Assembly: GCA_973895155.1 (NCBI GenBank) | Contig: OZ316896.1 | Span: 10,365,525-10,429,524, forward strand | DNA length: 64,000 nucleotides | Direction: 5' to 3' | From: Marsupella aquatica | Lineage: Eukaryota > Plantae > Marchantiophyta | Part shown: positions 10,876-55,089 of the stretch, one piece after another | Layout: each line of letters starts with the position of its first letter | Position numbering within the stretch: position 1 is the first letter of the stretch | The notes under the pieces: generated by a model | Database searches by the model: none | Seen by the model: only the letters and a program-made list of their open reading frames with translations | Told to the model about the DNA's origin: nothing | Program-made: the position numbers and the translations under genes

Positions 10876-10961
10876 AATATTGCCCAATTTGTGATGAACA
10901 ATGGTTTGAGATTGATGTGAAGGAGAAAGAGGGCATCTATGGGTGCATGTGTTGTCAAAAA

Positions 10962-11258
10962 CTCGGGGGTCTCACTACATGGGGACCTCCCCATCACCTG
11001 CGACGTTTTTAGGCCTTGGACCCCCTAAAATGTAAGAAAAAAATATTATTTTTTAACCCCTATAAAGTTGGAATATTCTTGGAATATTCCAAAAATTGGA
11101 TTAAAAAGGCCCTAATATTCTTATAAGTCTCAAAATTGAATTTAAAAGACCCTATTGTTCTTCTACAAAAATTCTTAAGTCTTCCCTTACAACCAATAAA
11201 ATGACCCTATCCTTCGTCGCACGTGATATGCCATTTTTGTGGAAGTGAAACCCCCGAG
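10962..11258. mobile_element. MITE, family 1 copy a (297 bp)
   Basis: TIR CTCGGGGGTCTCACT / AGTGAAACCCCCGAG and 8-bp TSD GTCAAAAA (10954-10961, 11259-11266). Nearly identical to 22188-22483. Confidence 0.92.
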
Positions 11259-14200: not shown

Positions 14201-14614
14201 GTTAATTTCTATCAAAAATACCTATTTTGGATCGCACGTGGGGCCTAAGATTTTTGATAGTCAACCCCCCAAGATTTAGAAGATGCTTTCACTTTTATCC
14301 AAGATCAATGCAAATTGGCTGGAGACTCTATAATTGTTGATGACATTGATCCCAACTTTGAGGTGTCTCTATTGACAGATGAGCAAAAAACATTTTATGA
14401 TTGCGTCATAAATCATTCTGTTACAAAATGCATTGTACCATTGCAACTCAATATTGACGGTGTTGGTGAAACCGGAAAGTCTTTTTTGATTGGAGCTATT
14501 TCGCACGGTATAGCTCAACATAAAGATCCGAGCTTGCCATCAGCATTGATCAGGATTGCACCCATTGGAGTTGTAGCTTATACCATAAAAGGACAAACAT
14601 ATCATTCAGCCTTA
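11267..14614 (+). pseudogene. Helitron Rep (HUH) and start of PIF1 helicase, fragmented
   Basis: FPTLFPNG, FFTVSATDHQWPDL, YWYRFEWQGRGSGHIHG (HUH), YISKY (Y2), ERDYSAQEVCH, HHPFR and Walker A GVGETGKS. Many stops and frameshifts. Confidence 0.9.
13987..14273. mobile_element. MITE, related family 2 (287 bp)
   Basis: TIR CTCGGGGGGTTAACTA / TAGTCAACCCCCCAAG and 8-bp TSD ATTTAGAA. Removal restores the frame YPNLE|DAFTFIQDQCKLAGD. Confidence 0.88.
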
Positions 14615-15531
14615 AACACAATTTCGGACCGACCGAGAAGTGTGTCGGAGTTCTCGTTTAGCCCGATCCCATTTTTTTTCTAAGGCAATGCAATGACCGA
14701 TAAAACTGGCAAAAACTCTCCGAAACGCCACTTTCCTCCATTGCATCGCCGCGGGAATGCAAGGAGCGATACGTGCATTGGGTTTTACATTCTGTCAGTG
14801 AAAAAGTCCGAACTGCGAGTAACTTGGTCCGAATTGTGTAATCCAAGAACGACCACGCACTAACCCAGGTAAAGGGAAAACTTAACCATGGTTAAGGGGA
14901 AATTAACCATGGTTTAGAGCGTCTCCTATATAAAGAGGAGCGGGCTGCCCCTGGGGCTGCCCATAAAACGTTTGCTTTTGCCAGAGCAATATCTCCTGAC
15001 TGAGAGCGAATACCAAACTCCCATCGAGTCTTACCCAAGCGATTTGACTCTTTCTACCGAAAACCCGATAAATTTATCGGAACAACCATTCCTGTTCAAG
15101 TTCTCCATGTAAGACTAACTAGTCATTTAGTGTAAAATGTCTAGATCCGAGTGGACTGCGATAAATTTATCGCATTCTGCATTCCTCTGTTGCAATCATT
15201 TGATCCAGTGTTTAGAGAGGTGTTGCCTTCATTCCGATAAATTTATCGGAGTCTTCATTCCTTTGATGGAAAGAGGAGTAATTGAGAATCCGATAAATTT
15301 ATCGGAGTTGTCATTTTTGTGAAAGATTGAATTCAGGGCTTAGGTGTCTGAGGAAGTCATATTTTCAATTCGAATGCGGAGTGCGATAAACTTATCGCAT
15401 CCTCCTGTGAGAATCATTTTCCTTTGTTTTATTTGGAGACTCATCTTCATCTCTGATGTCGCAGTGTTGCCGGATTTAGGAGGCACAACGGAAGGTCGAT
15501 TGCACTCCGTGCACAACAGGTATGGTGACAA

Positions 15532-15804
15532 ATGGCTGTCTTCCTTGAAAATCATGTCAAACGTGCACGCCGGTTGTACAAGAGACTCGTGCGACTCAAA
15601 GTTCTCCCCATCGGTATAGGAGCATTGTGGATGGGTGGTACTGATCCTGGAGATAGGCAGAATCCTCTCCGCATTGAATTTTACGGAATGAATGATGCAA
15701 GAGTTCCAATTTGTTCGAGGTTGATGTTAACGGCGTGTTTACATTCTTTGGAGTTTTCTTGTAACTATTGTTGTCGTCGTCTTGACAACAAGTACCACAA
15801 ATAG
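15532..15804 (+). CDS. Small ORF of unknown function in element B
   Basis: 90-aa ATG-started ORF on the cargo strand with no recognisable motif. Confidence 0.3.
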   Translation: MAVFLENHVKRARRLYKRLVRLKVLPIGIGALWMGGTDPGDRQNPLRIEFYGMNDARVPICSRLMLTACLHSLEFSCNYCCRRLDNKYHK

Positions 15805-16055
15805 GCTCACTTCTGTTGTAAGATTTGGAACGAAGACCCTTGGGTGAACCTTTCACGATGAGTGTTTCGACCTTTGCATTGAGGCGCGTCTTGTAAGGAC
15901 ATATTTAAATAAACAAGTCCTACCCTTGCGCAGCAAATATAATACGTCACGAGTCCTAATCGTTAAACTGTCGTGCAGAGTTGGTACTGTGGATGTGTTC
16001 GGTTACACCTAGTGATTGAAGGTATTTTTATTGGTGGTTTTGGTAGCTCTGTTTC

Positions 16056-16599
16056 ATGGTTACGTCGGAGAATCTAATCATTGCAAAGATGGGATCCGTT
16101 TTAGCCCACGAGCGTAGGAAATATATTCGAGGAAAAGTGCCCGGTGTGGAATGCGGAAGTTTGTTGAATGGACTTCCCGATCAACTCATTGAATCTCACA
16201 TTTGGCCCCTCCTAGCCTTGTCTTGCACACAAGATGAACACCTTGGCCTTGACCTAAAACTTCTACCAGAATAACGATTGACTCGAATGAGAACAATCAT
16301 TTGTCTTGGAGCCACCTCAAAGAAATGGAACTATCTTGTTGTTGGTACACAATTTTGGGCGCTATTGAAATATGCAGTCCGTGAGATCAATGACATAAAC
16401 AAAATGCTCGCAAACATTCCTAATGCCGACCTTCTCTCAAACATACATATTGCTAGGGTCTTCCGAGAGGAAACTCATTTCCTCTCTCCCATAGATAATT
16501 ATGCTTGGGTGCTTTTCGTATGAGCAGTTAGATCAGTTTCGTAGAGTTTGGATAAATCTTGGAGAAAGCGGGAAGCGGACAATTCTTGCATGGCATTGA
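16056..16599 (+). pseudogene. F-box-like gene, homolog of 66-596
   Basis: LLNGLPDQLIESHIWPL...TSKKWNYLV...FWA. After a frameshift, LGCFSYEQLDQFRRVW matches LGGFEGSELDTFRNLW in A. Stop at 16272. Confidence 0.7.
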
Positions 16600-16923
16600 C
16601 GAGTCTGAGTGGATGAGGCATTGCTGCAAACATCCAATAAATTTATCGCACTCCTCATTCCTCTAGTCGATTTTGGGTGCTCTAAGGTTTGCTCAAGAAG
16701 AGCTTGTAAAGAAACACTTTGAATGTAATTGACTCTGCCTCCCCTGACTTTGGGTTGTGTGGTCCAGAGTGTATTTGTTTGCGCCTCTTCGGACGATTAG
16801 CTGACAAGTGCATTGGCTTCACAGCCCATTATACAAGGTATTGTAAAGTTGGATGAAACTTGTAGAATTGTAATTAGTATGTTCTCCAAAATTTATTCCT
16901 GATTTCTATTCGGTGATCAGGCC

Positions 16924-17641
16924 ATGCTCGAGCGACGCATTTTTGTACCCTACTTGGATCCTCCAGAATGGGGGAATGGAGCCATGCTGGACCAGCTAAG
17001 GAGGCTGGATGAGTCACTAATTTTAAAGATATGCAGGCTGGTAGTAAAACCGTCTTACCATAACGCATTTCACTTCTACGTAGATCAGATAGGGGGAGAA
17101 ATTTATATTCGGTGGGATAGATATGTTGGATTTTCTAGAAGAGTTATCCTACTCTTTGTGAAAACCGGTGCAGTAAGACGTTTTATACTCCACTGCTGTC
17201 ATGTTGTGAAGGGCAATCCTGCTTATGATCCAGAATTCTATGCCGACAACAGACGTAGAGCATTCGATGAGATTCAGGATGTGATTGACGAGCTGGACAA
17301 TCCTCTTGCCACCGAGTTTTTTATTGACACTGGTGGGAAACTATATTCATACAAGATTCATCAACTCCCCCCCCAGCCGGTCTGTGCGCTCTTTAACTTG
17401 ATCTATGTAAGTTGCCTGTGGACGAACGTCCTTGCCAATGGTGAGATCTGTCCATGCTGCACAAATTAATGCTTGTTGTGATATTCCGTCATGCCGGTAT
17501 TCAGTAGCAGTAGTGAATCTTGAGACTGGTGAAGTTGATTTCCATTGGCTGTGGGCTTATGATCATCGCGTCACTCATATTCCCCAATGGCCCAAAAAGC
17601 GGATCGAACGCTTCGCTCTGGCAAGGTTCAACTATGATTAG
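16924..17641 (+). CDS. Unknown cargo protein (probably spliced or frameshifted)
   Basis: 181-aa ORF plus a following 69-aa ORF with protein-like composition; no family recognised. Confidence 0.4.
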
Positions 17642-20570
17642 GATTTAGGTTTAGGGGTTAAGGTTTTGGATTTAGGGTTCCGTAGCTGATTCTTTGACCT
17701 GTACACTCGGCCGTCAATTTAAAGAAGGCTCACTTTTGCGATAATTTTATCGGTCATTTGCATTGCGGGTCTCTTTGTCCTTGTGTGATGAGATGTCGTG
17801 TCCACATGTGTTGTGAGATTGGCGGCGATAATTTTATCGCTCTTTGCATTGGAATTTTTTTATTTGCAGACTTTGCCATGGCTGCTAGTGGAAAGAGTGG
17901 ATCTGCTGAGGCAGAAAGTCTCATGACAAGCCTCACCAATGCAATTTGGACGAGTGAAGACATTTGTGAAGAGGTCAAGTGTATCAAGAAGTCATGGTAC
18001 TTCCGTGACGCCAGATTACAGTCCACGGGTTTCAAAGATTGTGCTACCCCAATCCTTTGGGTCCAGTTGAAAAAATTGGTGAAGGTTAATGTTTCGTATG
18101 GCCCTGTCATTGCTGTTGCCGTCGTCGAGTTCATGGTTGGCCACGGGGAGGGAAAAGTGTTGACAGAGGGCCTTAGTTTCTTGACAATGTGTGGGCGCAA
18201 GGGTTTCACATCTCTCATTGTTACTCTCGATAACTTTGATGAGAAATCGATGGACAGTTATCCAGAAGATCCCCTTGTTGCCGAAGTTTGGGCAGCAAGA
18301 GAGATGAATGTTATGGGTTCGGCTTGGATCGGCCAGTATGTGCAAGATTGTGATGCCATCATGCTTCCAAGGATGAACGCAGAGTACAAGAGACTTGTGG
18401 GTGAAGAGTTCAAACCTGTCCGCAAAATTGTTTTCAAGAAACCAGGTTCAAGTGGCAGCGGTGGTTCTAATGCCGATAAAATATCGGGGCGGAAAGAACC
18501 ATTGCAATCCTCTACACATATTGACGTGGACGAACCTACAACTTCTGGTCAGGTTTTGGGAAGTGGAAGAGGGAAAGGGAGAGGTAGCGGCAAGGGAGAT
18601 GCCGCGGGAACCTCTGACGGTGGGAAGAAGAGCTAGGAAACTGGCGGTAGTGGGAGAGGCCGGGGCAACCGTCGAGGACCATCCGTTAAACCAAGCGAAA
18701 GTAAAGGATCCGAGGGATCCAGGCCATCTGGTTCTGGACTTAGCCCAAAGAGGAAGAGGACTGGCTGGACTGAGACGGTGGCTGCAGAAGTAGATAGAGC
18801 TCCGTCAATTCCATCAGTTCCAGTCGCGGTTCCTGCGGCGCCATTGGTAAGTACTACGTCGTTGTACTGTTTAACAAATACGAAATCCGATAAAAATCTC
18901 GCTGTTTATTTCCTGAATTGCGGATTGTGGAGTTATGTTGAACAAATGCAAACTCCGATAAAAATCTCGTAGTTTCTTTCCTTAATTGAATTTGCAACGC
19001 TTTTGTAGGCTGATTAGGAGGAGGAGACGGCTCTTTCGATGTATGAGACGGACGCGATCAAGGCAGAGCTCAGTCTTCTGATGCAACGAAGGGTGCAAAG
19101 GACAACTGTGCTTCTACATGTCGACAATCTCATATTTGATGAGGAGGGGGATTTGTCAACTTTGATTAGACCAGTGGATAGATTGCATGTGGAAAATATC
19201 AAGATACTTCTCATGAAAAACCCCACCAACTTCAGTGCCCCGTTCGTGCTGTGTGTGGATCCGAAGGATTGTCCCACAACCGCAGATTGGGACATCCTGA
19301 AGTCAAGGGTATGGAAGTATAGAATTATTGGAGGGAATCATGCTGCTCGGGCAAAGTCCGAGTTGTTTAAAATGTACGAGAAGCAAATATATGGTGAGCC
19401 AGAAGCTTGGGTTTACGCTGGGCTTACGAGATCCGAGGTCCGAAAGTTAGGCTTCCAGGATAACTATGACCAAGAGTATCGGAAGAACATGACTAAAATT
19501 GACCCAAGTTCGCGCTTGTCACAATATTTTCCTTGAAATGGGTGTGGGCTCGACTGAAGATGTCCACGAAGCATGTTGTCAAGAATGCATGATGGAGTAC
19601 ACGCCAGGAGTTCGTGACTCCATGGCCAAACATGATCCGGCTTTCCAAATTGCTTTCCGAACAGGTGAAATTTGGGATCTTCAGGAGCAGATTTTCCAGA
19701 TGTGGGAGAAAGGTATTGTCTTAGGATAACCCAAAAAAATTGTGGCAACGACGAACGCAAAGGGAAAGGTAAAACCTTTGACGGTAAGGGAGATTAAAAT
19801 GAATAAACTTGCTGATGACCTCAACTTAAATTCATTTCGAGGTCTCCAAGACTGTCAAATAAGAAGCATGTCAAGCGTCTCTTGAATAGGGTTATCGGGA
19901 AGGTGATCACTTTGGATCAAATGCACAAGGAAGGTGAGAAGTTGAAAAATCTTGCCAAGGTGAAGAAACTATTTTTGCAGTCTGGTCAGCCAGATTGGGC
20001 AACATGCAGAGAAATGTTTCCCAACGAAACAGATGTCTTGGTCCTTGGCATATGGGCGGAGAAATTGAGTGACGCGGTAAGCATTCCTCTCACAACATGC
20101 TCTATCGTGAGATTTTTATCGGCTTTAGCATTCCTTTGTTGGTTTCTAAGCGATTGCATCTATCAGCTAGCGCGCTCCATCACGAGATTTTTATCGGCTT
20201 TAGCATTCATTTGTTGGTTTCTAAGCGATTGCATCTATCAGCTAGCGTGCTCCATCGCAAGATTTTTATCGGCTTTAGCATTCATCTCACACTATTCTAA
20301 CTGTAGATGTGTCTGACATTTTTACAGCTGAAGATTAATTCAAAAAGGAAAAGCAAAGTGGTTCCGATTGTCACTTATAATTCTGCGGGGGAGGTTATTG
20401 TTCCCTCAGCTGAAATCCCTTATGTGTTTAAGAATTTTGTGCTTGTTGCAATCGATAAGTACAATCGGCTGAGGCCCTTAGGCGAGGGCACAGCAGAAGC
20501 GTTTGAACAAACATGGAAAAATGCAGACGGGGATTCTTTTCCCTACTATCTCCCTGGGTCCTCAGCGTTA

Positions 20571-21778
20571 CTAATACAAGGAGGACGTGTGAACAACGCA
20601 AGGGTATTTTTAATGTAATGCAAACTAATTTTTATAATAATTTTTAAAGTAGGCAACATCCATGTATATACATTTGGCACAATATTAGTAATAAGGGTTT
20701 TATCAAATTCATGCCACATTTATCTTATGCAAGGGTACCCAAAATGCCAAAGGACACGCGTCGCTATATGGTTGGCACACATGTCATCATTTTATTGGCA
20801 CACATGTCCATATAGTAAATCAGACATTTAATTATTTGTCGTCTTAAGGCAAGTTTGGTTTCGTGGGCCCCCTTATGGTGGGACAAATGAGTTTGGGTAG
20901 ACATGTTTAGGAATTAAGTCGGGAGTTGAGTACATGTTGGGTCAGGATCCTTGGGCCCAACTTGGCTGGGGTTTTGGGATTGATGGAGACCCATGGATCA
21001 ATCCCACATAGACGGACAAGATTACTTTTGAATTCATTTGAATCAAATGGCCAGGTATGAGGCCACCGATGAAGCCAGATGTGTTTGTGTGTGGAGGGGT
21101 GTACTCCCTTGATCATAGGGGTGGGGGGAGGTACCGGGTGCACAAACAATATTTGTTACAGTTCTCAGTAGTAATGTTTTTGGTATTATCAGTACTTTGT
21201 GTCTAGAATATATGATTAATGTGTGGTTTGATGTGTCAGGTTGAAAGAAGCTGCCAAAACTCTACTTATCATAATTTGGTGTTTATGGTTAATGTCATAT
21301 CATTCTTAGTCAAGATGGAATAATTTAGCAATTAGAGTTTACATAAGTAGTATATATGCAATTTTTTCTCCAGGGACATAGCATAGCATAATATTTCCTT
21401 TGTACTAGTTTAGTTTATCTCTATGAGGTCTACAAGTTACCAAAGTTATAGTCCCATATTGTAGGAATAACCATACTTCTCTAGTACTAATTTTGTTTAT
21501 GATCTATATAAAATATGTATTGGTATGAACATCAGACGTAACAACAGGTCCCCTATGCAAAATAAAATCTTATATGTTTCATTATGATATTTACAATTTT
21601 AAAAATTCAAGGGTGTTTTTAATTCCTTCAAAAACTCTGTTATAATTTACAAAAGGATAAAATTTAATAGGAAAAGTTAATATTTTTACATTAACAAGAG
21701 ATTTTCTTTTGTGAACAAAAATATTAAGAAGGGGTACACAGGGGGTGTCTGTTCTCAGGAGGGTTCACTTAATATAGT
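20571..21778 (-). mobile_element. Putative non-autonomous Helitron-like insertion in the MTase gene
   Basis: AT-rich 1.2 kb. The minus strand starts ACTATATT and ends with a decayed hairpin (CCCTTGCGTTGTTCACACG), about 11 nt, then TTAG. No TSD. Removal restores SSAL|KSEGPGYYLHVGD. Confidence 0.55.
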
Positions 21779-22187
21779 AAGAGTGAGGGCCCAGGGTACT
21801 ATCTCCATGTTGGTGATGTTCGAATTTTGGATTCTTTTGTTCAGCCAAGGGCTTACACCCTTGCGGTTGCGGATATTCCATATGGTTTTAATGCTCCTGG
21901 TTCGGAGTTTGATGAAGTGGCCTTCATAGAAAAGGACATTTTAGACATGTTGACAAGTTTCTCAAAGATGACGACCGCTAAGCAGTGGAGGTTTGTTGTG
22001 ATCCATTCACTACAACAAACGCATATGGTGATGTCTGCACTGGAGAGTGTATGCAACTGTGGGGTCGAGGCTGGAATCTGGGAGAAGACTAACATTCATG
22101 AGCGTCCCGCTGGAGCTCGATTGGCGTGGGGTTTTGAGAACTGGTCGATAGGTTTCTATAGCGAGGAAGGCATTCAGAACATGGACA

Positions 22188-22483
22188 CTCGGGGGTCTCA
22201 CTATATGGGGACCTCCCCATCGCCTGCGACGTTTTTAGGCCTCGGACCCCCTAAAATGTAAGAAATATTTTATTTTTTTAACCCCTATAAAGTTGGAATA
22301 TTCGTGAAATATTCTAAAAATTGGATTAAAAAGACCCTAATGTTCTTATAAGTCTCAAAATTGAATTTAAAAGATCCTATTGTTCTTCTACAAAAATTCT
22401 TAAGTCTTCCCTTAGAACCAATAAAATGACCCTGTCCTTCGTCGCACGTGATATGCCATTTTTGTGGAAGTGAAACCCCCGAG
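22188..22483. mobile_element. MITE, family 1 copy b (296 bp)
   Basis: Same TIRs as 10962-11258; 8-bp TSD CATGGACA. Removal restores the MTase frame IQNMDMYNFQPDE. Confidence 0.93.
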
Positions 22484-23375
22484 CATGGACATGTACAATT
22501 TCCAACCGGATGAGTCTCGCGTCAATATCATCAAGGTTCCATGTGTAACCAAGAAGTCCGTTGATCCATTGGGATTTGTTGTGAACCCGTATCAGAAGCC
22601 TGTTGGTTTGGGGGCTTGGTTTGTTTCCCATTTCTCTGAGAAAGAGGATTGGGTTATTGATCTTTGTTGTGGAACCGGATCGACATTACCTGCTACTCTC
22701 CTCAATTCTCGCCAGGGTTGTGCTGTTGATAAGAGTTCTGCGCAGATTGATTTTGTGAAATCCCGGATCATGATTCTGGAGTCAAATTGGAATTTATATG
22801 AAGAATCCCAGATTGAAGGGCACGGCGTTGAAGGTCATGAGATTCAACCACCAATTGCAGGCCAATTGGGTGTTCTCGGGACATCGACTTACGTAGTTGA
22901 GGTCGTGAAGGAGACCGAAGAGGAACAAGAAGAAACTGAGGAAGAGCCTCCCAGAACACCAAATGAAGATGATCTCAACGACATGTTATTAGATTAGTTG
23001 CGTGTGCTCGTTAGGATAATGTCAATCACCAATGGAGTTGTCGATAAATTTATCGGATTCTATATTCCATGAGGAAGAATCTTTGTCACCTTTATTAATG
23101 CGATAAATTTATCGGACTTTGCATATATCGGATTGTCGCGGTGTTCTAGTTGGGGGAATGGAGTTGTCGATAATCTTATCGGACTTAGCATTGTATGCTC
23201 TAACTGGTTTGTCATTGCAATTATTTAAAAAAAAAGATATCATTATAGCTGCGGAGTACATAGTCCCAGAACGATAACCACTGTACATATTCATGGGAAC
23301 GATAACCATTATAACTTAAACCTGCAACTAGCTTCGACTATCAACGACTACAGTCTCCATTGCATTTTGAATGAT

Positions 23376-26300
23376 TTATCTTGTTTGTATAGGGAGAGTA
23401 CTATTTGCCAATAACGCAAAGTTATAGGCATAAACGGCAGTTTCTGCTAGGGACAATTCATCCTCCAGTACTTTGCTAAACGAAGCCTCTTTCTCCGGAT
23501 AATATCTGCTTTCAATTGCAGACTCTTCCTCCGAATCCATTGCATACCAAGTGATTTTAATCCGCTCCGGGATGTCGTTAATTCTTGTGAGAATCTCAGT
23601 CACTTTTGCCATCCAGAATGGTCTTCCCTTGGGATCCTGATGGGCTGCTACACATATCATTGCAAATTTAGTATTCACCTCTAGATCCTTGAAGTCTCCA
23701 ATTTCCGTGACTTTTCTTCAAATTTCGAAATACATGACTCCTCACACTCGCTACTTTATCAACCAAGCTAGGTTCCATTGCTGCTTCCGTAGGAATACTC
23801 GGAAGTTCTCTCTGTACGTTTACCTTGGGCCAACTCCAATCAAAACTCCATTGTGCAGGTTTCAGGTGGTGCTGAATCACTTCTTTTTGTTTGTCAAAAA
23901 AACGACCCCACCATAGACGATCTTCGTCGTCAAAGTAATTGAATCCATCTTCAATTGCTCTTCGATATTTTTGAAGAGTTGACAAATAACTTTGAGCCGC
24001 CCGCTCATCTTGTTCCTCAGCATCATTCTCTTGCTCTTCATTGTCTCCTATCGCTCCTGTGGCCGACTTCAATGCCATTTGTGGTGCGACCCACATTCCA
24101 GATGATGGAATGTACCGAACAAAATCCACCGTCTCCCCCCAATCGGTTGTCGTTGAAAGATGTTTGGCATGGAATACGGACCGAGCACTTCCATCTTCGA
24201 GTACTCTAGTAATCCGAAATTGTTTTTGAGCACTTATGTCGTGGAGAGTACGTAGAACCTGACCATCCATATCCTTGTCATTTGCTTGATCCTTGTCTGA
24301 CACAAATTTCTTAAAATTGACAACCTCGTCGATGAAAAATATCTTTGCCGTAGGATTGTAGGATTCCTCTATGATTGCTGAAAGAGTGTCCAATCGGAAA
24401 GCTTTCCGCTTGTTCAATTTTGAAGAAAACTTGCTAAACATTTGATCAATTTGATCATGGGTGTGCCTCACCAATAGGAAACCAACCTTTATTTTCTGGA
24501 AAACACCTATCTCCACCAACATATTCAAATATGCCATAAGATATTTATTCTTGTTTTCCCGAGCTGTGTTATCAAGCTGGAGGTAAAGCACTGGAGGGAG
24601 CAGACCTTCCCAGGTATTCAGAATATGCTGGATAACGTGGATGGTCAGGTTGCTATCATTGTGAATATTTGGATAGTTCAAAAAAACATTTGAACTTAAT
24701 TGTTTGTTGAAGATCAAACAACCCACTACGTGTACGGGGATGAAATACTTTTCATCCATATTCTTTGGACACCGAATAAAATGAGGTAACTCTGTCTTCT
24801 TTTGATCCATTCCATCAATATAGATGCCTAAATATTTCTCCGGACTCTTGTAACATTTGCTCCGGTGCTTTGCTAACTTCTCCCTCTCGACGGCTTGTGC
24901 CTTCCGATGCTCGTTTAGCAATGTTGAGAATTTTCCTACAATAATAAAAATGTTTAGGACAAAACATGATAACCGCAATGTTGGACCCTGACAGCGATAA
25001 ATTTATCGGGTTCAGTATTCAAACACGAGACCGTAATGAAAAACCGTGACAGCGATAAATTTATCAGGTTCAGTATTCAAACTGTTCAAACGATATATTC
25101 ACTCACATGGCCAAAGAAGAAGCACATGAATACTCAACCCGATAAAATTATCGGGAGTAACACACAGGTTTAGAAACTTACTCTTTTCTGCTTCGAGTGT
25201 TGCCTTGTCACGGAGTGCTTTGAATTCAGTACACGGGGCGCAGGTGGAGAAACGGCTCCTTTTGGGGATGCGCACGCGAGGAAACTCCTTGTTCCAAATG
25301 CGAAGAAACCACGAATATGTCATGCCTTGTTCTTGGTGCATTAGAGTTTCAGACTGGAAGGCATCAAAAACTTCTGTTTTTGTCCAATTGTCAGGTAAAT
25401 GAAAGATATCCTTGTTGGGGAGACTCTCGATATTTGTGGAAAAAAATCATCTAGCCATTGGATGAGACCAAGATGTGCGGGTGATTTTTCTCGACAAACT
25501 GTACCGATCTGTATCTGAGAAAACATGTTTTGCGAGATTTTTTGGAGACGATTATTTCCTAGTGAAAATAATTTCTTAAAACCACTCCGACAAAAGGATC
25601 TACCGCTAACTGAGTAACCACTTGCACCAGCATGCCCACCCTTCACACATCCTCTTAGAAGGATGTTCTTCTCTGGGTAGGATAGCCCATAGTAATAAGT
25701 GCGTTGTTTCGTCACGGCTAGCAGACCCAAATTCCTCAGACAGTAATTATCACAACACGAATACTTATGAATTTCTCTCATTTTGTTTCTATTCAATTTG
25801 TCATTTATCACATTGTCTTTCCTAGTAATTCGGTCCCTACTAGGCTCATTTGACTTCTCTACAGCCTGAAATCCGTTCATAACATTGGCATTTTTGGGTC
25901 CTTCAGGTGCCTCGCGAATAGATGCATCACTCTCTGCTGAGCTACCATCCTCTACAAATCTCCTTGACACATTTAGAGGGGCACTGAATAGACGACTATA
26001 ACTATTCTCTTCGACAACTCCTTCTAAACATTCAGACACAACTTGTGCTATTATATCGGATTCTCTATCTCCTTCCTCATCTTTGTCCTCCGATGCACTC
26101 GACTCATCTGAAAACACAATTGGACTCCGTGGCTCTCTATACTTAACCCGAACGCCACTAAGACCTCTCCTCGATACTTGGAGCCTGGAACCAATGACAG
26201 TCTGCCCTTGAGAACTTGGAGATTCTGGATTTGCATGTGCAGTCCCAACGACTCCGCGAGCTGCTGGAAAATTGGGCACTTGTTCACCACGATTCCCACA

Positions 26301-26906
26301 GACCATTCGAGAAAGGGCTGAGTCTAGACTTCGCAGTCCAATTCCCTCGCTTGCTCGCACATCCAGTCCAGGCAATGCAAAGACCGATCGTCGTATTGGT
26401 CTTTGTATTTCTGTGTCCCGATCCTCACCCGGAGACTGAAAGATCGGTCGTTGAACTTGTGTTGAATGTGGCGACTTGAATGCCGACTGCGATACGTGTA
26501 TCGGTCGCCGGATACCCTCTCCATAACACGGGATGGATGGACTGAAGCGACATCTCGGACCTAAACCTGGGATTGAAAGTTTCTCATTTCTTGGCGATGG
26601 AACGCTCAAGAGACGACGCTTCTCAGGTTTACTAGGCGACACATAGTAAGCACTGGGCTCAGGACCAGAACTTGCATCAGAATCTGAGTCAGAGATTTCG
26701 GGCACTATTTGCTGTGAGAGAGGTAGAGCTTTAAGTATGCGACTTGGAAAACAGCGAGCAACAAGATTAGGAGAGGATTCAACTGAACTGGAAGGAGAGG
26801 ATTCAACTGAACTGGAAGGTGAATCTGTGTCTGATTGAGACATGGCTATCCGAGACACTATGGGGCTTTGCATTCCTCCCGCAATCAGGGAAAATGAAAG
26901 GCTCAA
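23376..26906 (-). pseudogene. Sola-like DDD transposase with long Ser-rich N-terminus
   Basis: CCDNYC...FCRSGFKKLF, RFSTCAPC, IYIDGMDQ, LYLQLDNTARENKN, FLLVRHTHDQIDQMFS. In-phase intron at 24936-25181; frameshifts near 25430 and 23675. Confidence 0.8.
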
Positions 26907-27130
26907 CGGACAGAATGTTGCTCCAAGAACACAACTCCCAAAACTCTACTCTCGATAATGACGCCAAAAACTTATCGGCGGTGGCCCTTTTATAGTGTCT
27001 GTTGAGGGGTTGGCCCACGTGTCCACTTTTGATTGGCTGTCACCCTAAACGACAAAATAGCAGAAAAGGGTATATTTCTTGGATTTCCAATTTCATTCTC
27101 ACACGTGCATCGTAGCAAAATTATATAGTT

Positions 27131-27335
27131 TTGAAATTGAAGCGATAAATTTATCTGATGTTGGTATTGCAAAAGTGGTTCCTTCATATGGAAGTTGCAA
27201 TTTGAAATTGAAGCGATAAATTTATCTGATGTTGGTATTGCAAAAGTGGTTCCTTCATATGGAAGTTGCAATTTTGAAATTGAAGCGATAAATTTATCTG
27301 ATGTTGGTATTGCGAAGAGTTTTCTTCATATGGAT
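27131..27335. repeat. About 71-bp tandem repeat x3, each unit holding the B palindrome
   Basis: TTGAAATTGAAGCGATAAATTTATCTGATGTTGGTATTGC... is repeated three times upstream of the transposase. Confidence 0.9.
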
Positions 27336-27967
27336 AGGAATTTTAAAATTTAACCGATGAACCGAAGGATCTTAGTATTGTCGACTAGTATTTTTGTTGC
27401 CCGTAGTTTTCGCGATAATTTTATCGGACTGCGCATTGCTGTTGAAAGAATGGCATGTTGACTATGGTCACTTGCGGAGGTAACTGGTCAATTGCGGAGG
27501 TAACTGCAAGGTAAGTTTGACGAACCGTGCAGTAATTCTTATCGACTGTGATGTAAAATATTTTTGGTAAATATCCAAAAACTGAGAAAACTGAGATTGG
27601 GTCGGAGCTTTCATGGCTCAAATCCGGAGTCCGATACAGTTATCGCACTTGGCTCGAAACGTGGATATGGATTTATAGATAAGACCTTTCAGATATCTTT
27701 GGAGAGCGTGAATATGAGGTTGAGGAGAAAGTTTTTCGGATCTAATTGTTCCTTGATAATATGAATGTTTGTTAGCATGAATTTCATTGGTTTTGATCAT
27801 TATTAAATTTGCTGTTTCAATCCGAACTCCGATACGAATTACATTATTTCCCCAAAAACGTGTTTTTGATGAAAAAAACTGCCGATTTCGCGAGATTCGG
27901 CGGAAAATGAAAATAAACTTCTCGTTTAGAGGAAATAGTTCTTGTTCGGTCCGAAATCGTGTTCTTA

Positions 27968-36637: not shown

Positions 36638-39600
36638 GGGAGAACTAGATAAAAAATATTCCTAGGCACACCAGGGAATATCTCAATACATCTGAAAAAC
36701 TCTGTAAGTTTTACACACTATTGTTTTTCCAGTTATTTGTTAAGTGTGGTGGGAAAATGTTAAATCGCCCTCAGATCCATTAGCACGGGACGCTTGGGAT
36801 GAGATACGAGTAGTCGCAAAGTGAACTTGCGAGCCCTGGCATTTGCTCCAGTTGACCGTTCACTCATTGGGTCTGTGGTACTTGGGCCACAGTTCCTCCA
36901 ATATCTTCGGTTTCTTCCTTTGACCTTCCCTTCCTTTCTTCACGACAATCTACTGTGGTTATAAAGATTATATAGGGATACAGGAGTAAGAATTGTAATT
37001 TGCCTACGCCCACGATCTGTAGTGTGCAGGTTTCCCTGGCTCCTGGAATGGTACTCCTTGTTGTGAATTTGCCAATCTTCCTTTTTCGGAAGCGCAGAGC
37101 TCATTTACTCAGTTGACTACCTTGTCGTTGCTATCCCTCGATCCGTCGAAGAACCGACAGCTATAATACGATGTCCAAGGTGCTGAATATTACGAGCACT
37201 GATCTACCGAGCCCGATCAACCCTCCAGTGCCACTGCATGTTGATTCATCATCATCCAGCGATTTTCTGGATTTCAACCATGAACACAAGGAGACTGAAT
37301 CTGCATTATATCACATTCTTTCTAGATACTAACCATGTCTGGAACCCTTCATTGAAGAACTTCACGGCCATCTGATTCCCTGTACAGATCATTTACTTCT
37401 GCCAAGAACGTACCGGTTCAATACCTTGCCTTGACCAGTACATATCTTTAATAAGAAATTAGTAAACTGTGCAATATATTGCAGTTCTCTGTGTTTTATC
37501 CGACCCAAAATGTAGTGAACGATTAAGAAGGTTATTTGCAGATGATTTCCATCTCTGTCATAAAAGCTAGCTTTCTAGGTACACAAGGAGGTTCCCTTCC
37601 GCCCTAAGTTACAGGGGCACACACGAGTTTTGCCCACCATGTACGAGGCACTAGTCTACATATTAGTCACAATGGGTGAGTTGTCGATCTATGCTGGACC
37701 TCAGAGCTCCACATACTCGAGCTTTGTTCCATGGCGGGTTCATCTCCCGAGCCAGTGTCGATGTCGAGATGACTTCTGATCACATGGTAAATTCCAAGAG
37801 TACCCGAAAGGATCACACTGTATTACTTGGAGAAAACTAAGGAAAGGTAGAAGGGTTTGCTAGGCGCCCAACACATTTTGATCTGGATGCAGTTGACAAC
37901 CAGCTGCACTGGAGTGATTCGTCCCCAATCCAGTGTAATCCCGCCCTAAAGAAGTTCTATGTCCTCTAACCCGCCAAACAATTCCATGGTCTCATCTTCA
38001 GTATCGGTAGCCTCTGCCCTTTGATGTTGCTGCTGCTCTTGCTGACGATGTGTTGCGTTGGCGTCCACAACATCCTCACGTTGTATTTCTGGCAATTGCA
38101 ACGGCATGCTGAAGTCACGATACTCCAGCTCAGTCAAACCGGGGGAGAAGCACCTTCCTTTCGGCACCAGAGCGTTGTATCTACAGATTAGCATCTGCAG
38201 GCCTTCGATACATGAGTTTAGAACCGAGACTTTGTCAGCCTTGCGATTAAAAGGGGTGGGAAAACCCGTTAACTCGAAATGGACAGCGTTCAAGCCCTCC
38301 TTGATTCGCTTTCGACGAATCTGTTCTGCAATTCTATGGGCTTCAGCAGTCCGACTTCTTTTGCCGGTGCTGGGTTGTTCTTAACTGGGTTCTGGAAGCC
38401 CATCCTTGCTCTCCCCATCGTGTGACCCCGCAGCATCGGGGACCTGCTCGTGTTGCATCGTTTTGCCCTTCAAAGCCAGACGACGTGACATACTCCCGTC
38501 GTCGCTGGTCTGCATCCAGAACGGCTTCGTTAGTGTTCGAGCTCCAAGATGCTCCAACTGACAGTGCGCAAATTGTGCTAGACGAAAACAATTGATTCAG
38601 TATTGCATGCGCAATGTGTATTCAATTTTCGCCAAAGGAAAGGAAACATGAAGGCCACGAACAGTCGAGTCCCGCAGAGAAGGAGAACGAGGGCGCAGAT
38701 ACAAACATCCCAGGCGCGTTACCCTCGCAGTGAGTGGCAAGTTAAATAGTGAAATAGACCGCACGCGAGACTTGGAACTCCCGTTCTACTTCGATCGCTT
38801 CTCCTCTCCTGCAGCTAGCGGTCTGGTCGGGCTGGCTCCCCTCCCGTCAGAATTTTCTTCTGTCCTCTTGGATCGGCAGAGAGATCAGATCTTCGCTCTG
38901 CGCTACTGAAAACTTATGAAGCACCGAGAGTTCCTTGTTGTTGATGTTGTATCTAGTGTAGGAGCTCAAGGGTGTCGTTGGTACTTATATCTGCATGGTA
39001 AAAGAATGGTACTCCAGTTCGGTGAAGTCTCGGAAGCACCAGCTTTCATGCATCAGACTGATATTTGAACAATCAGCAACGCAGTCCCCTTATGTAGTGC
39101 AAATTTGTGCTTTTCGCGCTCCCGAGCTATTGTTGAACGAACGGGTGCCAGTAGGCCACGCGTATAATTGCTAATTTTGACCAGTGGCCCCGTCAGCCTA
39201 GTTCTCTTGCTAATGTTGAAAGGGGGTCCATGCCCCCTGACTCTAGTACTCTTGCTAATTTTAACACCAAGAACCCTCGATTAATGTATAGCCCGAACTT
39301 ATACATGGTATATATGGAGTGGTCTGATGAGGCAACGGTGAGCGGACAGATTTGGAAACTGGGACCAACAAAGCTGCAACACCAACGAATCTATTCTTGA
39401 GACCCCTGACTACGGCAGGATGGGTCCTGAGCTCCTACTTGACTCAACGAACCAGCTCAAGATCTAAGAATTGCAACGCTAGTTGCGTAAGCTAGAAGCT
39501 AGCTAACTTTGTGCGAACCGCATTGGAACGCTAATTGTGTCAGCAAGAAGCTAACTTTGTGCAACGTAGTCGCAGATTTGTTGAGCAACTTGTGTCGCTG

Positions 39601-40013
39601 CGCAGATTCAGCATCTCTTGTGGAGGTAATTAGTCACTATTATCTTCATTCTAATTAGACATCTGAAGACTGCAATGATATATCTGTATGTTTCTGGCGC
39701 TACGTGCTTCTCGGGACGCACAATTGACTCTACACATCTGATTTAGGAAATATGCGTAGTTGCCAGGTACTCTCTGTAGGTGACCCCCGCTCTTTACTCT
39801 ACCTTAAGCTCGTTCTTGTCTTTGTGACATATATATATTCGTTCTAGAGTTCTCGACATTCGTTCTCAGCTTGTCGACATTCTTTGCACGCCTTGCATTC
39901 AGTTGCACTAATCCTGACAGAGGTCTTGTTCCCAAGACATAACTCGGAGTTGCTCGAGTGTATCCCATTTTGTGTAAACAAACGTGAGTATCGCGTCCAG
40001 GAAAACAACAGGA
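36638..40013 (+). repeat. Segmental duplication, copy 1 (direct repeat of about 47004-50374)
   Basis: Long near-identical stretches from GGGAGAACTAGATAAA to GAAAACAACAGGA, with internal indels. Confidence 0.9.
37946..38557 (-). pseudogene. bHLH gene copy with premature stop
   Basis: Near-identical to 48365-48976, but CAA>TAA at 38381-38383 falls before the basic region. Confidence 0.85.
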
Positions 40014-42192
40014 ACTTCTGTAAACGTAGATTTAGTTTCTACTGTAGCCGCCCCTGCTGATCGAAGTCTCATTGATTTGTAATTGTATTGTTCGAGCAGT
40101 TTGTGGCTTGTTTTGCGGAAATATTGTCGTTTGTTTCAATCAAATTGGCCAGATCTGCTGAGCTTCGAACCAGTTTGAGCGAAGGTTTGCATCTTGTCTG
40201 CACGTCGCACGTTGGTACTATTCGATAGAACAGCTGATGAATGCGCAGCGTTGTAAAAAGTTTAGTAAATGGCTAGATTTAATGGACGCTGGCCTTAGAA
40301 TCCTAGAATGAAGATCATTGTGGGACTTTGGGGGAACTTTTGTGTGGATCAGAAGTAGCGGAGGAAGCTATGCTGAAACTCGAAAATTCTTGTGACCTTC
40401 CCAATCTGAAGAAGAGAAGGATGAAGAAGGATATGATTAGCTACAGAGCTGTGCAATCACACAGTTATACTAATAGGAGTAATTCTAAATCACTCTGTGA
40501 AATGGAAATAGGTGGGCAATTAATCCTTAAAATGATTGCGGAGCAAACGGTGAGTGGAGTACGTGTCTCTTTACCTTTTATTACTGGATGAATATATGGA
40601 GTGCCGGGGAAAAACATGGAGCTCTAGAGCAAACAATTCACGAAGTATGCTCTAGCTAGAAACACTAGAAACATAGCCAGGGGTGGAACAACACACCACC
40701 TCGACGTCGCGTTCCTTAGGGTGTATGCCTTGCACTTCCGCGAAAGTCTCTCATCAGGGGGACATTCGACCAAGGCGAAGTGGCTCTTTGGTTTCTTCCA
40801 AACTTGAAACCGCGATTTCCCGAGTCTTACTGCATCCTTCTCTGTTAAAACTGGATTCTCCTCCATTAGAAGGTTGATGAGTTCTGGCTTACCCAAGCCC
40901 TTTCCATGGCGCACATGTGGAAATTTAGCCCCATTACTTAAAATTTGTGCTGGAGATCAGCAATATCTACTGGTGGTACTTTCACATTTAATAAAGATTC
41001 TGGAATAATTTATTATTCTCATGCAACTTAAGGGCGTCCCAATCGTAATATCAATTGAGTAGATCCATACCTCGTAACTTCTTGCATCATTGAAGAGCCT
41101 CGCCGCTTTTTCCATGGCAGCTATGATTAATTCCTTGTCAGGCCTAGTTTCGAGAAAGAAGGGACTGAATGTGAATGTACTGTAGGAATGGAGTATAAAC
41201 CAAGTGGGCATCCAGCTTCAATTGCGAAGCTCCAGTTTGCAAACTCTTCCATGTACTCTAAGTCTATAGTGAGCTTGCATCGTGCAGAACTGAATCACGG
41301 TAGAATTTGAGGTCAGATGCTCGAAGAAGATTTATCAGGTCGATCAGATCTGCACCCGCAACTTTAGATATCTCCGGAACACTGTTGAGACTCCCGTCCT
41401 TTTTACAGGTGGAAAATACCCGGGTGACATTTCAACCATCACTATTATGACATATACAACCGATAGCAAAGTCTAGTTTAAACATTCCAATACTGCTTCA
41501 GAGACTACCTCAGCACGATGGATTGCAACCAAGTGGTGGGATCTCATAAATGTTGTCACCAGATTCTTGAGATATCAGGAACTAATCTAAAAGCGTCCAA
41601 GTCTGTCAACAAAATGTCCCGTCTGGGGTCGATCTACATAGCTATATATTTCTAGGACCGCTTTTTTTTCCCTTAGTTCTTTATGGCACTGAATTTAACT
41701 AGTACTTGGCCCACCTCATATACCCACCAACTCTGCCCCGCAGCTGGGTCCCGAGACTCAACCAGTTTCTGGACTTGATCAACTGTCAATCCTTGGCTCA
41801 ATTGGAAGGGGGCCCATAGGGGAGGCATGCCACTGTTTTGCCACGTACTTTTATCAAGGCTATCAAGTGGCCAAACACTCGAAAAAATGAATGAAAGGGC
41901 TAAATAAATATCAGAGTAAACGGGGTGAGAAGAGTGAGGACCGATCATGACCACTCAGGAGCCATAAAGAGTGTCACCCAAAATATGGACGGATGGCCTC
42001 TCAATTGGGGTGGTATAGAAACTTGTCTAAAATTAATCAAGCGGGGCTAAAACTATCTGAGTGAGAGTGCGTGAGAAGATAGAAGATCAACCCTACAGTC
42101 AAAACACATCAGTATCTGAGAACAAAGTCAGGGGCCCACTGAAAGCAAACTAGGATCGTCATTCTCAATGCAAAGCATTATGCGCGGCTGCC

Positions 42193-47003: not shown

Positions 47004-50000
47004 GGGAGAACTAGATAAAGAATCTTCCTAGCTAGCCACACCTGGAAAATCTAAATAAATACTAAAATTTGTGTAAGCTTTACACACTGTTGTTTTTCCA
47101 GTTATTTGTTAAATGTGCTCGGGTAATGTCAAAACGCCGTGAAAAAAAGAAAAGAAAAAAAAGACTTCTCTCTTTGGTCCAATTCATTGGGTACAGTCAT
47201 ATGAGTAGATTACCTTCGCAACATCCACCCTGGTCCAATCCACTACCAAATTGATAGTTAGCATGTATCTAGTACTTTTGGAAGGTAAAATTTTGACTTC
47301 GTCCCTTACATACAAAATTAGTCGGTAAGTACTATCAAATTTAATGGACGTGCATACTAATGAAAAGTCAGTGACATTCTTATCTTCGGGGAATTCAATG
47401 TTGCCGAAATGGTGCTTGCAATCGATGGGCCTTATTTCGACAGCTCCCGTATGCGTGTTCATTTCCGATAGATCCACTAGCACAAATTCTTGGGACGCTT
47501 GGGATGAAATACGAATAGTCGCAGTGAAAGTGAGCTAGCTTGCGAGCCCTGGCATTTGTTCCAGTTGACCGTTCACTCGTTGGGTCTGTGGTGCTTGGGC
47601 CACAGTTCCTCCAATACCTTCGGTTTCTTTCTTTGACTTTCCCTTCCTTATTTCACGACAACTAGTTATAAAGATTAGGGATACAGGAGGAAGAATTGTA
47701 ATTTGCCTAAGTCCACGATCTGTAGTTTGCAGGTCTCCCTTGGCAGTGAAGGGCCCTGCAATGGTACTCCTTGTTGTGAACTTGCCAATCTCCTGGCGTG
47801 CGGAAGCGAGTTCCTGTACGCAGTTTACTACCTTCTCGGTGCTATCCCTCGGTCAAAGAACCGACACCTATAATACGATGTCCAAGGTGCTGAATATTAC
47901 GATCGAGCACTGCATCTACCGAGCCCGATCAACCGAATGTAGCGAAGGATTAAGAAGTTTATTTGTAGATGATTTCCATCTCTGTAATAAAATGCTAGCA
48001 TTGTACACAAGGAGGTTCCCCCCCGCCCTAAGTTACAGGGGCACACACGAGTTTTGCCCGCCATGTGGCACAATTATATCGCGAAGAGTCTACAGTGGGT
48101 GAGTTGTCTGTGCTGGACCTGAGAGCTCCACATACTCGAGCTTTGTTCCATCGCGGGTTAATCTCCCGAGCCAGTGTCGATGTCGAGATGACTTCTGACC
48201 ACATGGTAAATTCCAAGAGTACCCGAAAGGATCACACTGTATTACTTGGAGAAAACTAAGGAAAGGTAGAAGGGTTTGCTAGGCGCCCAACACATTTTGA
48301 TCTGGATGCAGTTGACAACCAGCTGCACTGGAGTGATTCGTCCCCAATCCAGTGTAATCCCGCCCTAAAGAAGTTCTATGTCCTCTAAACCGCCAAACAA
48401 TTCCATGGTCTCATCTTCAGTATCGTTAGCCTCAGCCGTTTGATGTTGCTGCTGCTCTTGCTGACGATGTGTTGCGTTGGCGTCAACAACATCCTCACGT
48501 TGTATTTCTGGCAATTGCAACGGCATGCTGAAGTCACGATACTCCAGCTCAGTGAAGCCGGGGGAGAAGTACCTTCCTTTCGGCACCAGAGCGTTGTATC
48601 TACAGATTAGCATCTGCAGGCCTTCGATACATGAGTTTAGAACCGAGACTTTGTCAGCCTTGCGATTAAAAGGGGTGGGAAAACCCGTTAACTCGAAATG
48701 GACAGCGTTCAAGCACTCCTTGATTCGCTTTCGACGCTTCTGTTCTGCAATTCTATGGGCTTCAGCAGTCCGACTTCTTTTGCCGGTGCTGGGTTGTTCT
48801 TGACTGGGTTCTGGAAGCCCATCCTTGCTCTCCCCATCGTGTGACCCCGCGGCATCGGGGACCTGCTCGTGTTGCATCGTTTTGCCCTTCAAAGCCAGAC
48901 GACGCGACATACTCCCGTCGTCGCTGGTCTGCATCCAGAACGGCTTCGTTGGTGTTCGAGCTCCAAGATGCTCCAACTGACAGTGCGCAAATTGTGCTAG
49001 ACGAAATCAATTGATTCAGTATTGCATGCGCAATGTGTATTCAATTTTCGCCAAAGGAAAGGAAACATGAAGGCCACGAACAGTCGAGTCCCGCAGAGAG
49101 GGAGAACGAAGGCGCAGATACAAACATCCCAGGCGCGTTACCCTCGCAGTGAGTGGCAAGTTAAATAGTGAAATAGACCGCACGCGAGACTTGGAACTCC
49201 CGTTCTACTTCGATCGCTTCTCCTCTCCTGCAGCTAGCGGTCTGGTCGGGCTGGCTCCCCTCCCGTCAGAATTTTCTTCTGTCCTCTTGGATCGGCAGAG
49301 ATATCAGCTCTTCGCTCTGCGCTACTGAAAACTTATGAAGCACCGAGAGTTCCTTGTTGTTGATGTTGTATAGTGTAGGAGCTCAAGGGTGTCGTTGGTA
49401 CTTATATCTGCATGGTAAAAGAATGGTACTCCAGTTCGGTGAAGTCTCGGAAGCACCAGCTTTCATGCATCAGACTGATATTTGAACAATCAGCAACGCA
49501 GTCCCCTTATGTAGTGCAAATTTGTGCTTTTCACGCTCCCGAGCTATTGTTGAACGAACGGGTGCCAGTAGGCCACGCGTATAATTGCTAATTTTGACCA
49601 GTGGCCCCGTCAGCCTAGTACTCTTGGTAATGTTGAAAGGGGGTCCATGCCCCCTGACTCTAGTACTCTTGCTAATTTTAACACCAAGAACCCTCGATTA
49701 ATATATAGCCCGAACTTATACATGGGATATATGGAGTTGGTCCTGATGGGGCAACCGTGAGCGGACAGATTTGGAAACTGGGACCAACAAAGCTGCAACA
49801 TCAACGAATCCAATCTTGAGACCCCTGACGAGGGCAGGATGGGTCCTCCTACTTCGACTCAACGAACCAACTCAAGATCTAAGAATTGCAACGCTAGTTG
49901 AGTAAGCTAGAAGCTATCTTTGTGCGACGTACGTACTCGCAGGTTTGTTGAGTAACTTGTGTCGCTGCGCAGATTCAGCATCTCTTGTGGAGGTAATTTT

Positions 50001-50374
50001 TTCTATTCTCTTCATCCCCATTGGACATCTGAAGACTGAGATGATTGCATCTTTCTGGCGCTACGTACTTCTCGGGACGCACAATTTTACTCTACACTGT
50101 ATCTGATTTAGGAAAAATGCGTAGTTGCCAGGTACTCTTTGTAGGGGGGCCCCGCTCTTTACTCTACCTTAAGCTCGTTCTTGTCTTTTTGACATATTTT
50201 CGTTCTAGAGTTCTCGACATTCGTTCTTGGCTTTTCGACATTCTTTGCACGCCTTGCATTCAGTTGCACTAATCCTGACAGCGGTCTTGTTCCCAAGACA
50301 TAACTCGGAGTTGCTCGAGTGTATCCCATTTTGTTTAAAGAAACGTGAGTATCGCGTCCAGGAAAACAACAGGA
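47004..50374 (+). repeat. Segmental duplication, copy 2
   Basis: Direct repeat of 36638-40013. Confidence 0.9.
48365..48976 (-). CDS. Divergent bHLH transcription factor with PIF/subfamily VII-like basic region
   Basis: KRSRTAEAHRIAEQKRRKRIKECLNAV...KADKVSVLNSCIEGLQML resembles RSRAAEVHNLSERRRRDRINE...KTDKASMLDEAIEYLK. The ORF-track TTG start follows a splice acceptor, so the first ATG is at 48934. Confidence 0.8.
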   Translation of the reverse strand: MEHLGARTPTKPFWMQTSDDGSMSRRLALKGKTMQHEQVPDAAGSHDGESKDGLPEPSQEQPSTGKRSRTAEAHRIAEQKRRKRIKECLNAVHFELTGFPTPFNRKADKVSVLNSCIEGLQMLICRYNALVPKGRYFSPGFTELEYRDFSMPLQLPEIQREDVVDANATHRQQEQQQHQTAEANDTEDETMELFGGLEDIELL

Positions 50375-54862: not shown

Positions 54863-55089
54863 ATCTCCCCCTTGACTCTGGTCTAGGGGAGGGTAATACT
54901 TCTAACCTATATGATTCCTCAGCGGGAAGTTCTGGACGGAAACCAACATGGTTTCCCCTCTCTAACTAGAGCAAACCATAACTAAGCCGTAGCCTATTAC
55001 TAGGAGTGAAGAAGAGCATATATCAGTAATTACAGCGAATGTTAAGAAAAACCCTTACTTGTGACGCAATTGCAAAACCCGCAACACAT

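Follow-up and report, generated by a model that had tools for sequence, protein, structure and literature searches.

A palindrome array and a ParB-like methyltransferase gene in a Sola-like transposon of Marsupella aquatica: a candidate self-recognition system

Element B and its genes

The window analysed here is a 64,000-nucleotide stretch of the Marsupella aquatica genome (Marchantiophyta; assembly GCA_973895155.1, contig OZ316896.1, positions 10,365,525 to 10,429,524 of the forward strand), to which coordinates refer unless another locus is named. It holds a probable Sola-like DNA transposon, hereafter element B (Table 1), with a DUF7869 transposase gene, a gene for a ParB-like protein joined to a DNA methyltransferase (MTase), two small genes and many copies of a short palindrome lying almost entirely in non-coding DNA. 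Judged by sequence comparison, this palindrome array is a real and conserved feature, and by analogy it most likely works like a self-recognition array of the parS or VANC type.

The boundaries of element B are given by terminal inverted repeats (TIRs), a target site duplication (TSD) and the Helitron PIF1 helicase open reading frame (ORF) that it splits. Reading resumes as HSAL/LSIRPMQKF across the insertion point, and the host ORF around the element has Pfam matches to PIF1 and Helitron. The assignment as Sola-like is suggested by DUF7869 together with termini and a TSD that agree with the description of Sola1-1_Ec32. Coding sequence makes up some two thirds of the element. The TIR core, TCCGAA, occurs seven times in the terminal 759 bp (14615-15060 and 27650-27963) versus seven times in the inner 12.6 kb, and this terminal word is a candidate subterminal transposase site. 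The nested miniature inverted-repeat transposable element (MITE), presumably hAT-like, is 94.6% identical to its twin elsewhere in the window.

Named relatives of the transposase come from Riccia, Adiantum and marine invertebrates, as would suit a host among the non-flowering land plants; a PDB search found no relative of it, and a literature search on DUF7869 found no paper. Neither main gene is intact: stops, frameshifts and insertions interrupt them, whether through decay or through assembly errors, and the spliced ParB-MTase gene has two insertions. Fusions of the ParB-like region with N6_N4_Mtase were recovered by profile search in Chara, Riccia and Ginkgo proteins, although full-length fused forms were absent from a 90% database search. 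A ParB/Srx (sulfiredoxin) N-terminal fold is present in the model of a homologue, P0112 (83% identical), whose top Foldseek matches are ParB, Noc and PadC (best E=3.6e-5, to ParB). For the helical, helix-turn-helix (HTH)-like part, the best PDB profile match of the ParB-like region is a weak one to the DNA-binding region of Spo0J (residues 152-192, E=0.065), and Pfam HTH_ParB reached E=0.05 in one of six homologues scanned; the P0112 model has a predicted local distance difference test score (pLDDT) below 50 over residues 200-267. Scans of PHROGs and NCBIfam gave MTase matches only and no ParB match. The P0112 homodimer prediction, with values of 0.01, 0.43 and 0.01, was counted neither way. 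The MTase domain has the beta-class order, with motif IV preceding the S-adenosylmethionine-binding motif I, as well as similarity to N6_N4_Mtase, and among solved structures those nearest to homologue P0147 are adenine MTases (DpnA-like, CcrM). A relationship to MpDN4MT1 or rotifer N4CMT was rejected, as SPPY is found there and ParB is not mentioned.

The look-alikes of P0112 in the ESM Atlas are DUF3723 clusters of fungi (score 0.94-0.95, with 160-168 features shared), which is a lead only. DUF3723 is a conserved Starship cargo gene, and a search for DUF3723 and ParB found no paper linking the two. Several ORFs of the window, near 596-672, 16839-16924 and 17840-17878, start a few bases past a polypyrimidine-AG acceptor and leave little room for a promoter, which suggests introns in the 5' untranslated region or alternative splicing from shared leaders.

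Table 1 Features of element B and its insertion site
Feature	Coordinates	Strand	Basis or remarks
Left TSD, CTTA, 4 bp	14611..14614	+	
Element B, putative Sola-like cut-and-paste DNA transposon, 13,349 bp	14615..27963	.	TIR, TSD, interrupted helicase ORF
Left TIR, 18 bp, AACAC start	14615..14632	+	17/18 identical to right TIR
Left-end cluster: 14634, 15066, 15159, 15235, 15291, 15384	14634..15397	.	14634 abuts left TIR
Gene 1, F-box-like (weak), internal stop	16089..16523	+	Pfam F-box-like E=0.038, below cut-off
Site between gene 1 and gene 2	16635..16648	.	
Gene 2, probably spliced	16924..17641	+	Splicing inferred from GT/AG; no Pfam match for main ORF
Two sites upstream of ParB-MTase gene	17739..17839	.	
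ParB-like, helical/HTH-like and beta-class N6/N4 MTase gene	17878..22997	+	tblastn of homologues, fold, N6_N4_Mtase, alignment
ParB-MTase intron 1, variant sites 18888, 18956	18847..19008	+	GT/AG
ParB-MTase intron 2, variant sites 20108, 20183, 20258 in 75-bp tandem repeat	20077..20327	+	
AT-rich, CpG-poor interruption (intron and/or insertion), 1.2 kb	about 20601..21790	.	CpG observed/expected 0.29; 0 sites
Nested MITE, 296 bp, 8-bp TSD, splits MTase exon	22188..22483	.	Twin copy at 10961-11258
Three sites between convergent 3' ends of MTase and transposase genes	23042..23181	.	
DUF7869 (Sola-like) DDE transposase, two exons, frameshifted	23358..26845	-	PF25273 E=3.7e-48; homologues
Transposase intron, sites 24995, 25053, 25140	24936..25181	-	
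Exonic site, perfect arms, in low-complexity N-terminus of transposase	26490..26503	.	
Right-end cluster: 27143, 27214, 27286 (71-bp tandem repeat), 27413, 27632	27143..27645	.	
Right TIR, 18 bp	27946..27963	-	
Right TSD, CTTA, 4 bp	27964..27967	+	

A palindrome dispersed through non-coding DNA

At up to two mismatches, CGATAAATTTATCG matches 19 times (7 exact), all between 15066 and 27645, against a mean of 0.18 and a maximum of 1 in shuffled sequence. At exactly three mismatches, five further matches lie inside element B and three outside. The arm pattern CGA[TG]A-N4-T[AC]TCG with at most one arm mismatch, which was widened after the relatives were known, occurs 26 times in element B (0.57 expected) and twice in the remaining 50.6 kb of the window (2.2 expected); with this chance level outside the element, a host-wide repeat was rejected. 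In a look-elsewhere control that admitted any spaced palindrome, element B held 17 and none of 25 shuffles more than 3. A preliminary description of this DNA had spoken of more than 20 copies, a figure that is reached only if variants are counted; the coordinates given there were correct, though one base early.

The sites form nine clusters spaced 0.65-2.8 kb apart, and several stand within 68-75-bp tandem duplications. Fifteen of the 26 lie more than 1 kb from either end of the element, a layout unlike that of ordinary subterminal transposase repeats, as had been remarked, and the remaining 11 stand no farther than about 820 bp from an end. Both end clusters, the intergenic copies and the three copies in the transposase intron were found as described. 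The copies reported for both MTase-gene introns are likewise present, all of them variants with three to four mismatches and one CGAGA/TCTCG-type arm. Only one of 25 sites is coding (14634 excluded; exon bounds approximate), with a binomial p=5.5e-11 that is to be read with the non-independence of sites caused by tandem duplicates. The claimed near-absence from exons thus stands, except that a second exonic copy, at 26490, joins the variant already noted at 18474, which is 13 bp long and one base short. Sites are absent from the non-coding DNA at 15805-16090, from the AT-rich interruption and from the MITE, none of those listed falls inside the putative short introns of gene 2, and the outermost 300 bp of the element hold no site at up to two mismatches.

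The palindrome is two-fold and 14-16 bp long, with fixed arms, a variable centre and a core flanked by S. An outer word, YATT, recurs at +8..+11: the window has it in 17 of its 41 half-sites after de-duplication (background 1.3%; other offsets at most 2), and the relatives in 10 of 20. The extended consensus, AATR-N7-CGAKA-N4-TMTCG-N7-YATT, therefore spans about 36 bp, and most sites have the outer word on a single side. Base pairing in the flanks does not exceed that of permuted sequence (7, 9 and 5 of 25 pairs versus 9.2, 8.5 and 6.2), which speaks against an RNA hairpin, a reading that was rejected, and for recognition of duplex DNA by a protein. The palindromes are likely element-specific, double-stranded DNA sites.

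A different palindrome is repeated in the neighbouring element A. Six exact copies of ACGCG-N6-CGCGT (606, 1958, 3776, 6671, 7689 and 8483; at most 3 in shuffles) lie in apparent introns and spacers, each followed after about 30-65 nt by a likely splice acceptor, and one ORF is weakly ParB-like (E=0.0014; hhalign 41%). Element A extends from 1 to about 9450, with its left end and transposase outside the window, and contains F-box-like, ParB-like, Ulp1 protease and two NIF phosphatase genes at a CpG observed/expected ratio of 0.93.

Could the palindromes have no DNA-binding role at all, being RNA hairpins, splicing signals or neutral by-products of tandem duplication? Such an origin would fit the many copies within tandem repeats and the many in both elements that stand a few tens of nucleotides upstream of a likely 3' splice site. 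It is nevertheless very unlikely, since the flanks do not pair above chance and a common arm variant breaks pairing, since sites recur in unrelated flanks and at orthologous positions of relatives despite about 60% protein identity, and since shuffles yield at most 3 palindromes against 17 in element B and 6 in element A.

Related elements and their palindromes

Relatives were found at 12 metagenome loci (L001-L012) and at seven loci on eukaryote-like genome contigs (L013-L019, six of them distinct as L015 = L016); viral contigs yielded none. Three metagenome loci, L001 (4 sites), L003 (7) and L007 (2), have the arms of element B with a CC-type centre (CCGG, CCAG, CCTG). These sites occupy the orthologous transposase intron (L001, L003) and the downstream spacer, so that the internal copies, whose conservation had been set beforehand as a test, are kept. 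Beside the palindromes of L001 lies a convergent MTase gene with 62% identity. L006 has another palindrome, of TCATGATATCATGA type, in 7 copies (at most 3 in shuffles), one of which again lies in that transposase intron; the locus also carries a divergent gene that matches the N-terminus of a ParB-like protein at 34% identity. Among the other metagenome loci, L002 and L004 have stops in the transposase core, and L008-L012 are fragments or decayed.

Of the genome contigs, L013 combines a transposase and a ParB-like gene (E=1e-30) with 30 exact copies of TTGAAATTTCAA in two apparently intronic arrays. Elsewhere in the same assembly, L030 holds another ParB-MTase-like gene as a 3' fragment, with the L013 palindrome in the equivalent intron and no DUF7869 match in 48 kb. 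GCGATCA-N-TGATCGC is found in three intergenic spacers of L015/L016 and downstream of the transposase in L017, and no palindrome was found in L014, L018 or L019. Palindrome and ParB/MTase gene thus occur together in L001, L006, L013, L030 (as a fragment) and, weakly, element A. That the palindrome sequence varies by family while its position is kept is as predicted for a co-evolving, element-encoded binder; the transposase tree is mostly unresolved, so no claim of co-evolution is built on it.

The L013 palindrome is also present in arrays of 28-bp period at G001:C6:47988-48580 and G001:C12:2669-3233, 99.5% identical to each other, inside what seems to be an intron of an unrelated gene; neither ParB nor a transposase lies close by. 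L015:3866-7002 and L017:3712-3955 represent an intronless OTU-DUF7869 transposon on eukaryote-like contigs. L015 contains several other genes, including one of 468 aa; its gene 5 gave a model of pLDDT 36, no usable Atlas match and an hhalign probability of 1.3%.

Candidate readers of the palindromes

The protein that reads the palindromes could be the DUF7869 transposase, acting as a sequence-specific activator or a transpososome scaffold, with the internal copies as surplus sites multiplied by duplication. All plant loci that carry the motif were reached through their transposase, and in L015 and L017 palindromes occur where no ParB gene was recognised. The sites near the ends, one of which abuts the TIR, as well as the CCGA shared by half-site and TIR, would also suit such a role, and transposases can be intrinsic sequence-specific activators, according to the accessible text of one preprint (bioRxiv 10.64898/2026.08.24.746577). 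However, the AtMu1 transposase and TnpA bind termini, whereas most sites of element B are internal and its outermost 300 bp hold no close match. Element B also has a terminal word of another kind, TCCGAA. In L005, where the transposase core is free of stops, neither the intron nor the flanks contain a palindrome, and the sites of L030 lie in a ParB-MTase fragment where no transposase was found. This explanation, the main one among the rivals, is considered unlikely.

Alternatively, the palindromes might be read by the product of gene 1 or gene 2, by the ParB-MTase through its N-terminal domain, or by a host transcription factor that they recruit upstream of each gene. Most ORFs are indeed preceded by sites, VANC-type regulators are unrelated accessory proteins (PMC5735166), and L015 offers several genes as candidates. 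Sites are also present inside introns and between convergent 3' ends, gene 1 and gene 2 have no homologue in the (short) loci L001-L012, and a host factor is argued against by the family-specific divergence and by the absence of the palindrome from the other 50 kb. A reader of this kind is highly improbable.

The favoured explanation, which is held to be somewhat more probable than its negation, is that the ParB-like MTase of element B binds the palindromes and keeps the element active or self-marked; this role is proposed by analogy with VANC and VirB/BisD. The palindromes would be parS-like docking points for the element's own protein, and a ParB-family dimer would be a natural reader of a two-fold site of 14-16 bp, presumably through its helical domain. 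Copies would multiply by local tandem duplication where coding permits, and site and protein would drift together between families. More speculatively, the protein might spread along the element between clusters 1-3 kb apart, deposit methyl groups and so lead to anti-silencing. As the copy in element B is broken, it could only be served in trans.

Several observations weigh against this explanation. Eight of the 12 metagenome loci have no repeated palindrome, and L005 in particular is a real counter-example. In L015 and L017 the palindromes are not accompanied by a recognisable ParB gene, and in L029/L031, from the assembly of L013, the array is present twice with neither a ParB-MTase nor a transposase gene nearby. 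Within element B, site density is greatest at the ends. The P0112 model is of low confidence (pLDDT 56, predicted template modelling score 0.35), and its agreement with solved folds is middling (VIA Z 7.0; root-mean-square deviation 3.1-3.3 A over 87-139 residues), with sulfiredoxin tied. The canonical ParB CTPase motifs are not found: GxxR of the cytidine triphosphate (CTP) site is replaced by G[GN]xH, with R next in 2/80 (159 proteins examined), and ENxxR by an HNxxxEYR-type motif. Motif IV of the MTase reads DIPY rather than the canonical DPPY/SPPY; of 74 homologues, 3 have DPPY and 11 have D-x-P-Y/H (x not P). Together, GGxH and DIPY make clamp sliding and catalysis doubtful. A clear sign of protection is also missing, as the CpG pattern is ambiguous: the observed/expected ratio is 0.81 in element B and 0.34-0.60 in the flanking DNA, yet it also reaches 0.79 at 29-37 kb of the window. 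A survey of 4-mers showed none strongly depleted within element B.

A broader proposal would see here a bacterial ParB/parS-type cassette, domesticated by eukaryotic transposons for portable self-recognition, in which a nucleotide-gated clamp loads at family-specific palindromes, spreads in chromatin across the entire element and writes N6-methyladenine or N4-methylcytosine or blocks silencing by 5-methylcytosine. The cassette would be passed among transposase superfamilies and also among kingdoms, with streptophytes, animals, algae and possibly the fungal Starships, through DUF3723, as its carriers. This is a tentative idea, and rather doubtful.

Other features of the window

A Copia-type long terminal repeat (LTR) retrotransposon lies at 54519-61048, with 345-bp LTRs that are 93.9% identical. 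A 2.5-kb duplication (37509-40019 / 47936-50380) is 92.9% identical, and its second copy holds an ORF at 48365-49006 that appears by eye to be basic helix-loop-helix-like. A short GTTTAGG tandem at 63041-63066 resembles the plant telomere repeat.

Comparison with known systems

The comparisons that follow refer to the accessible portions of the cited sources. ParB-like accessory proteins that bind their own transposon have already been put forward (PMC12477816; bioRxiv 2025.02.11.637652), so that a system of this kind is in print as a hypothesis, and in those portions the 2025 proposals of self-binding or self-modification rested on domain content alone. Element B adds a precise candidate site and a land-plant setting, which makes the proposal directly testable, and natural site variants paired with protein variants provide a built-in specificity series. 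A streptophyte member, an intron-level site map of a whole element, a bipartite 36-bp site and divergence of sites between families were not found in the literature searched, on which preprint supplements, the Current Biology version and Iyer 2011 may bear; a search for ParB, DNA transposons and Chara or ferns found no paper.

A close counterpart is Sola1-1_Ec32 of Ectocarpus, a giant Sola-type element whose transposase gene and ParB-like and N4/N6 MTase gene lie on opposite strands and for which self-binding and self-modification were proposed; internal palindromic sites are not described for it in the text available (PMC12477816). Both elements have a 4-bp TSD ending in A (CTTA here). Sola1-1_Ec32, however, comes from a brown alga, is 21.5 kb long and has a TIR of 282 bp as opposed to 18 bp, and its termini, AACCG-CGGTT, agree with the AACAC...GTGTT of element B in the first three bases only.

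VANDALs are Mutator-like elements. No VANC-like Pfam family was found among the 18 window ORFs scanned, the transposase is of DUF7869 type, and the system of element B is not a member of VANC. The likeness lies in the layout, as VANDAL elements have family-specific short motifs, multiplied in tandem, in introns, intergenic and terminal non-coding DNA (PMC5735166), and motif-studded introns are therefore not new in kind. VANDAL motifs co-evolve with an element-encoded protein whose anti-silencing function was demonstrated, whereas the function in element B is predicted from sequence; the motifs are also shorter (8-9 bp) and non-palindromic as printed (PMC5735166).

In red-algal Plavaka elements, inverted-repeat arrays stand beside the ParB-like PAG3, binding to the own transposon was proposed, and the authors compare the system with VANDAL (bioRxiv 10.1101/2025.02.11.637652). 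PAG3 resembles the protein of element B as a ParB-like accessory protein with inverted repeats within the element, but its ParB domain is fused to a 2-oxoglutarate oxygenase and the MTase is separate (PAG2), unlike the ParB-MTase fusion here. The PAG3 arrays adjoin the gene and are not reported, in the text available, across introns and spacers, and the Plavaka transposase is unrelated to the DUF7869 type. Chlorophyte ParB-HTH-Dam fusions (Iyer 2016) belong to a different family. Spm TnpA and the AtMu1 transposase are also element-encoded binders with family-specific clustered motifs that activate cognate copies, but in Arabidopsis their binding, followed by chromatin immunoprecipitation, and the accompanying hypomethylation are confined to termini (bioRxiv 10.64898/2026.08.24.746577), to which the sites of element B are not.

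VirB, BisD, KorB and Noc are ParB-fold proteins of mobile elements that load at palindromic sites and serve regulation or anti-silencing rather than segregation (PMC10653881, PMC12409273). These bacterial relatives have GxxR/ENxxR, bind CTP and use few sites (two for BisD), whereas element B combines GGxH, 26 sites and an MTase fusion in eukaryotic chromatin. If the proposed reading is true, element B would represent a second transposon self-protection system after VANC, possibly one in which a ParB clamp and amino-methylation act on plant chromatin.

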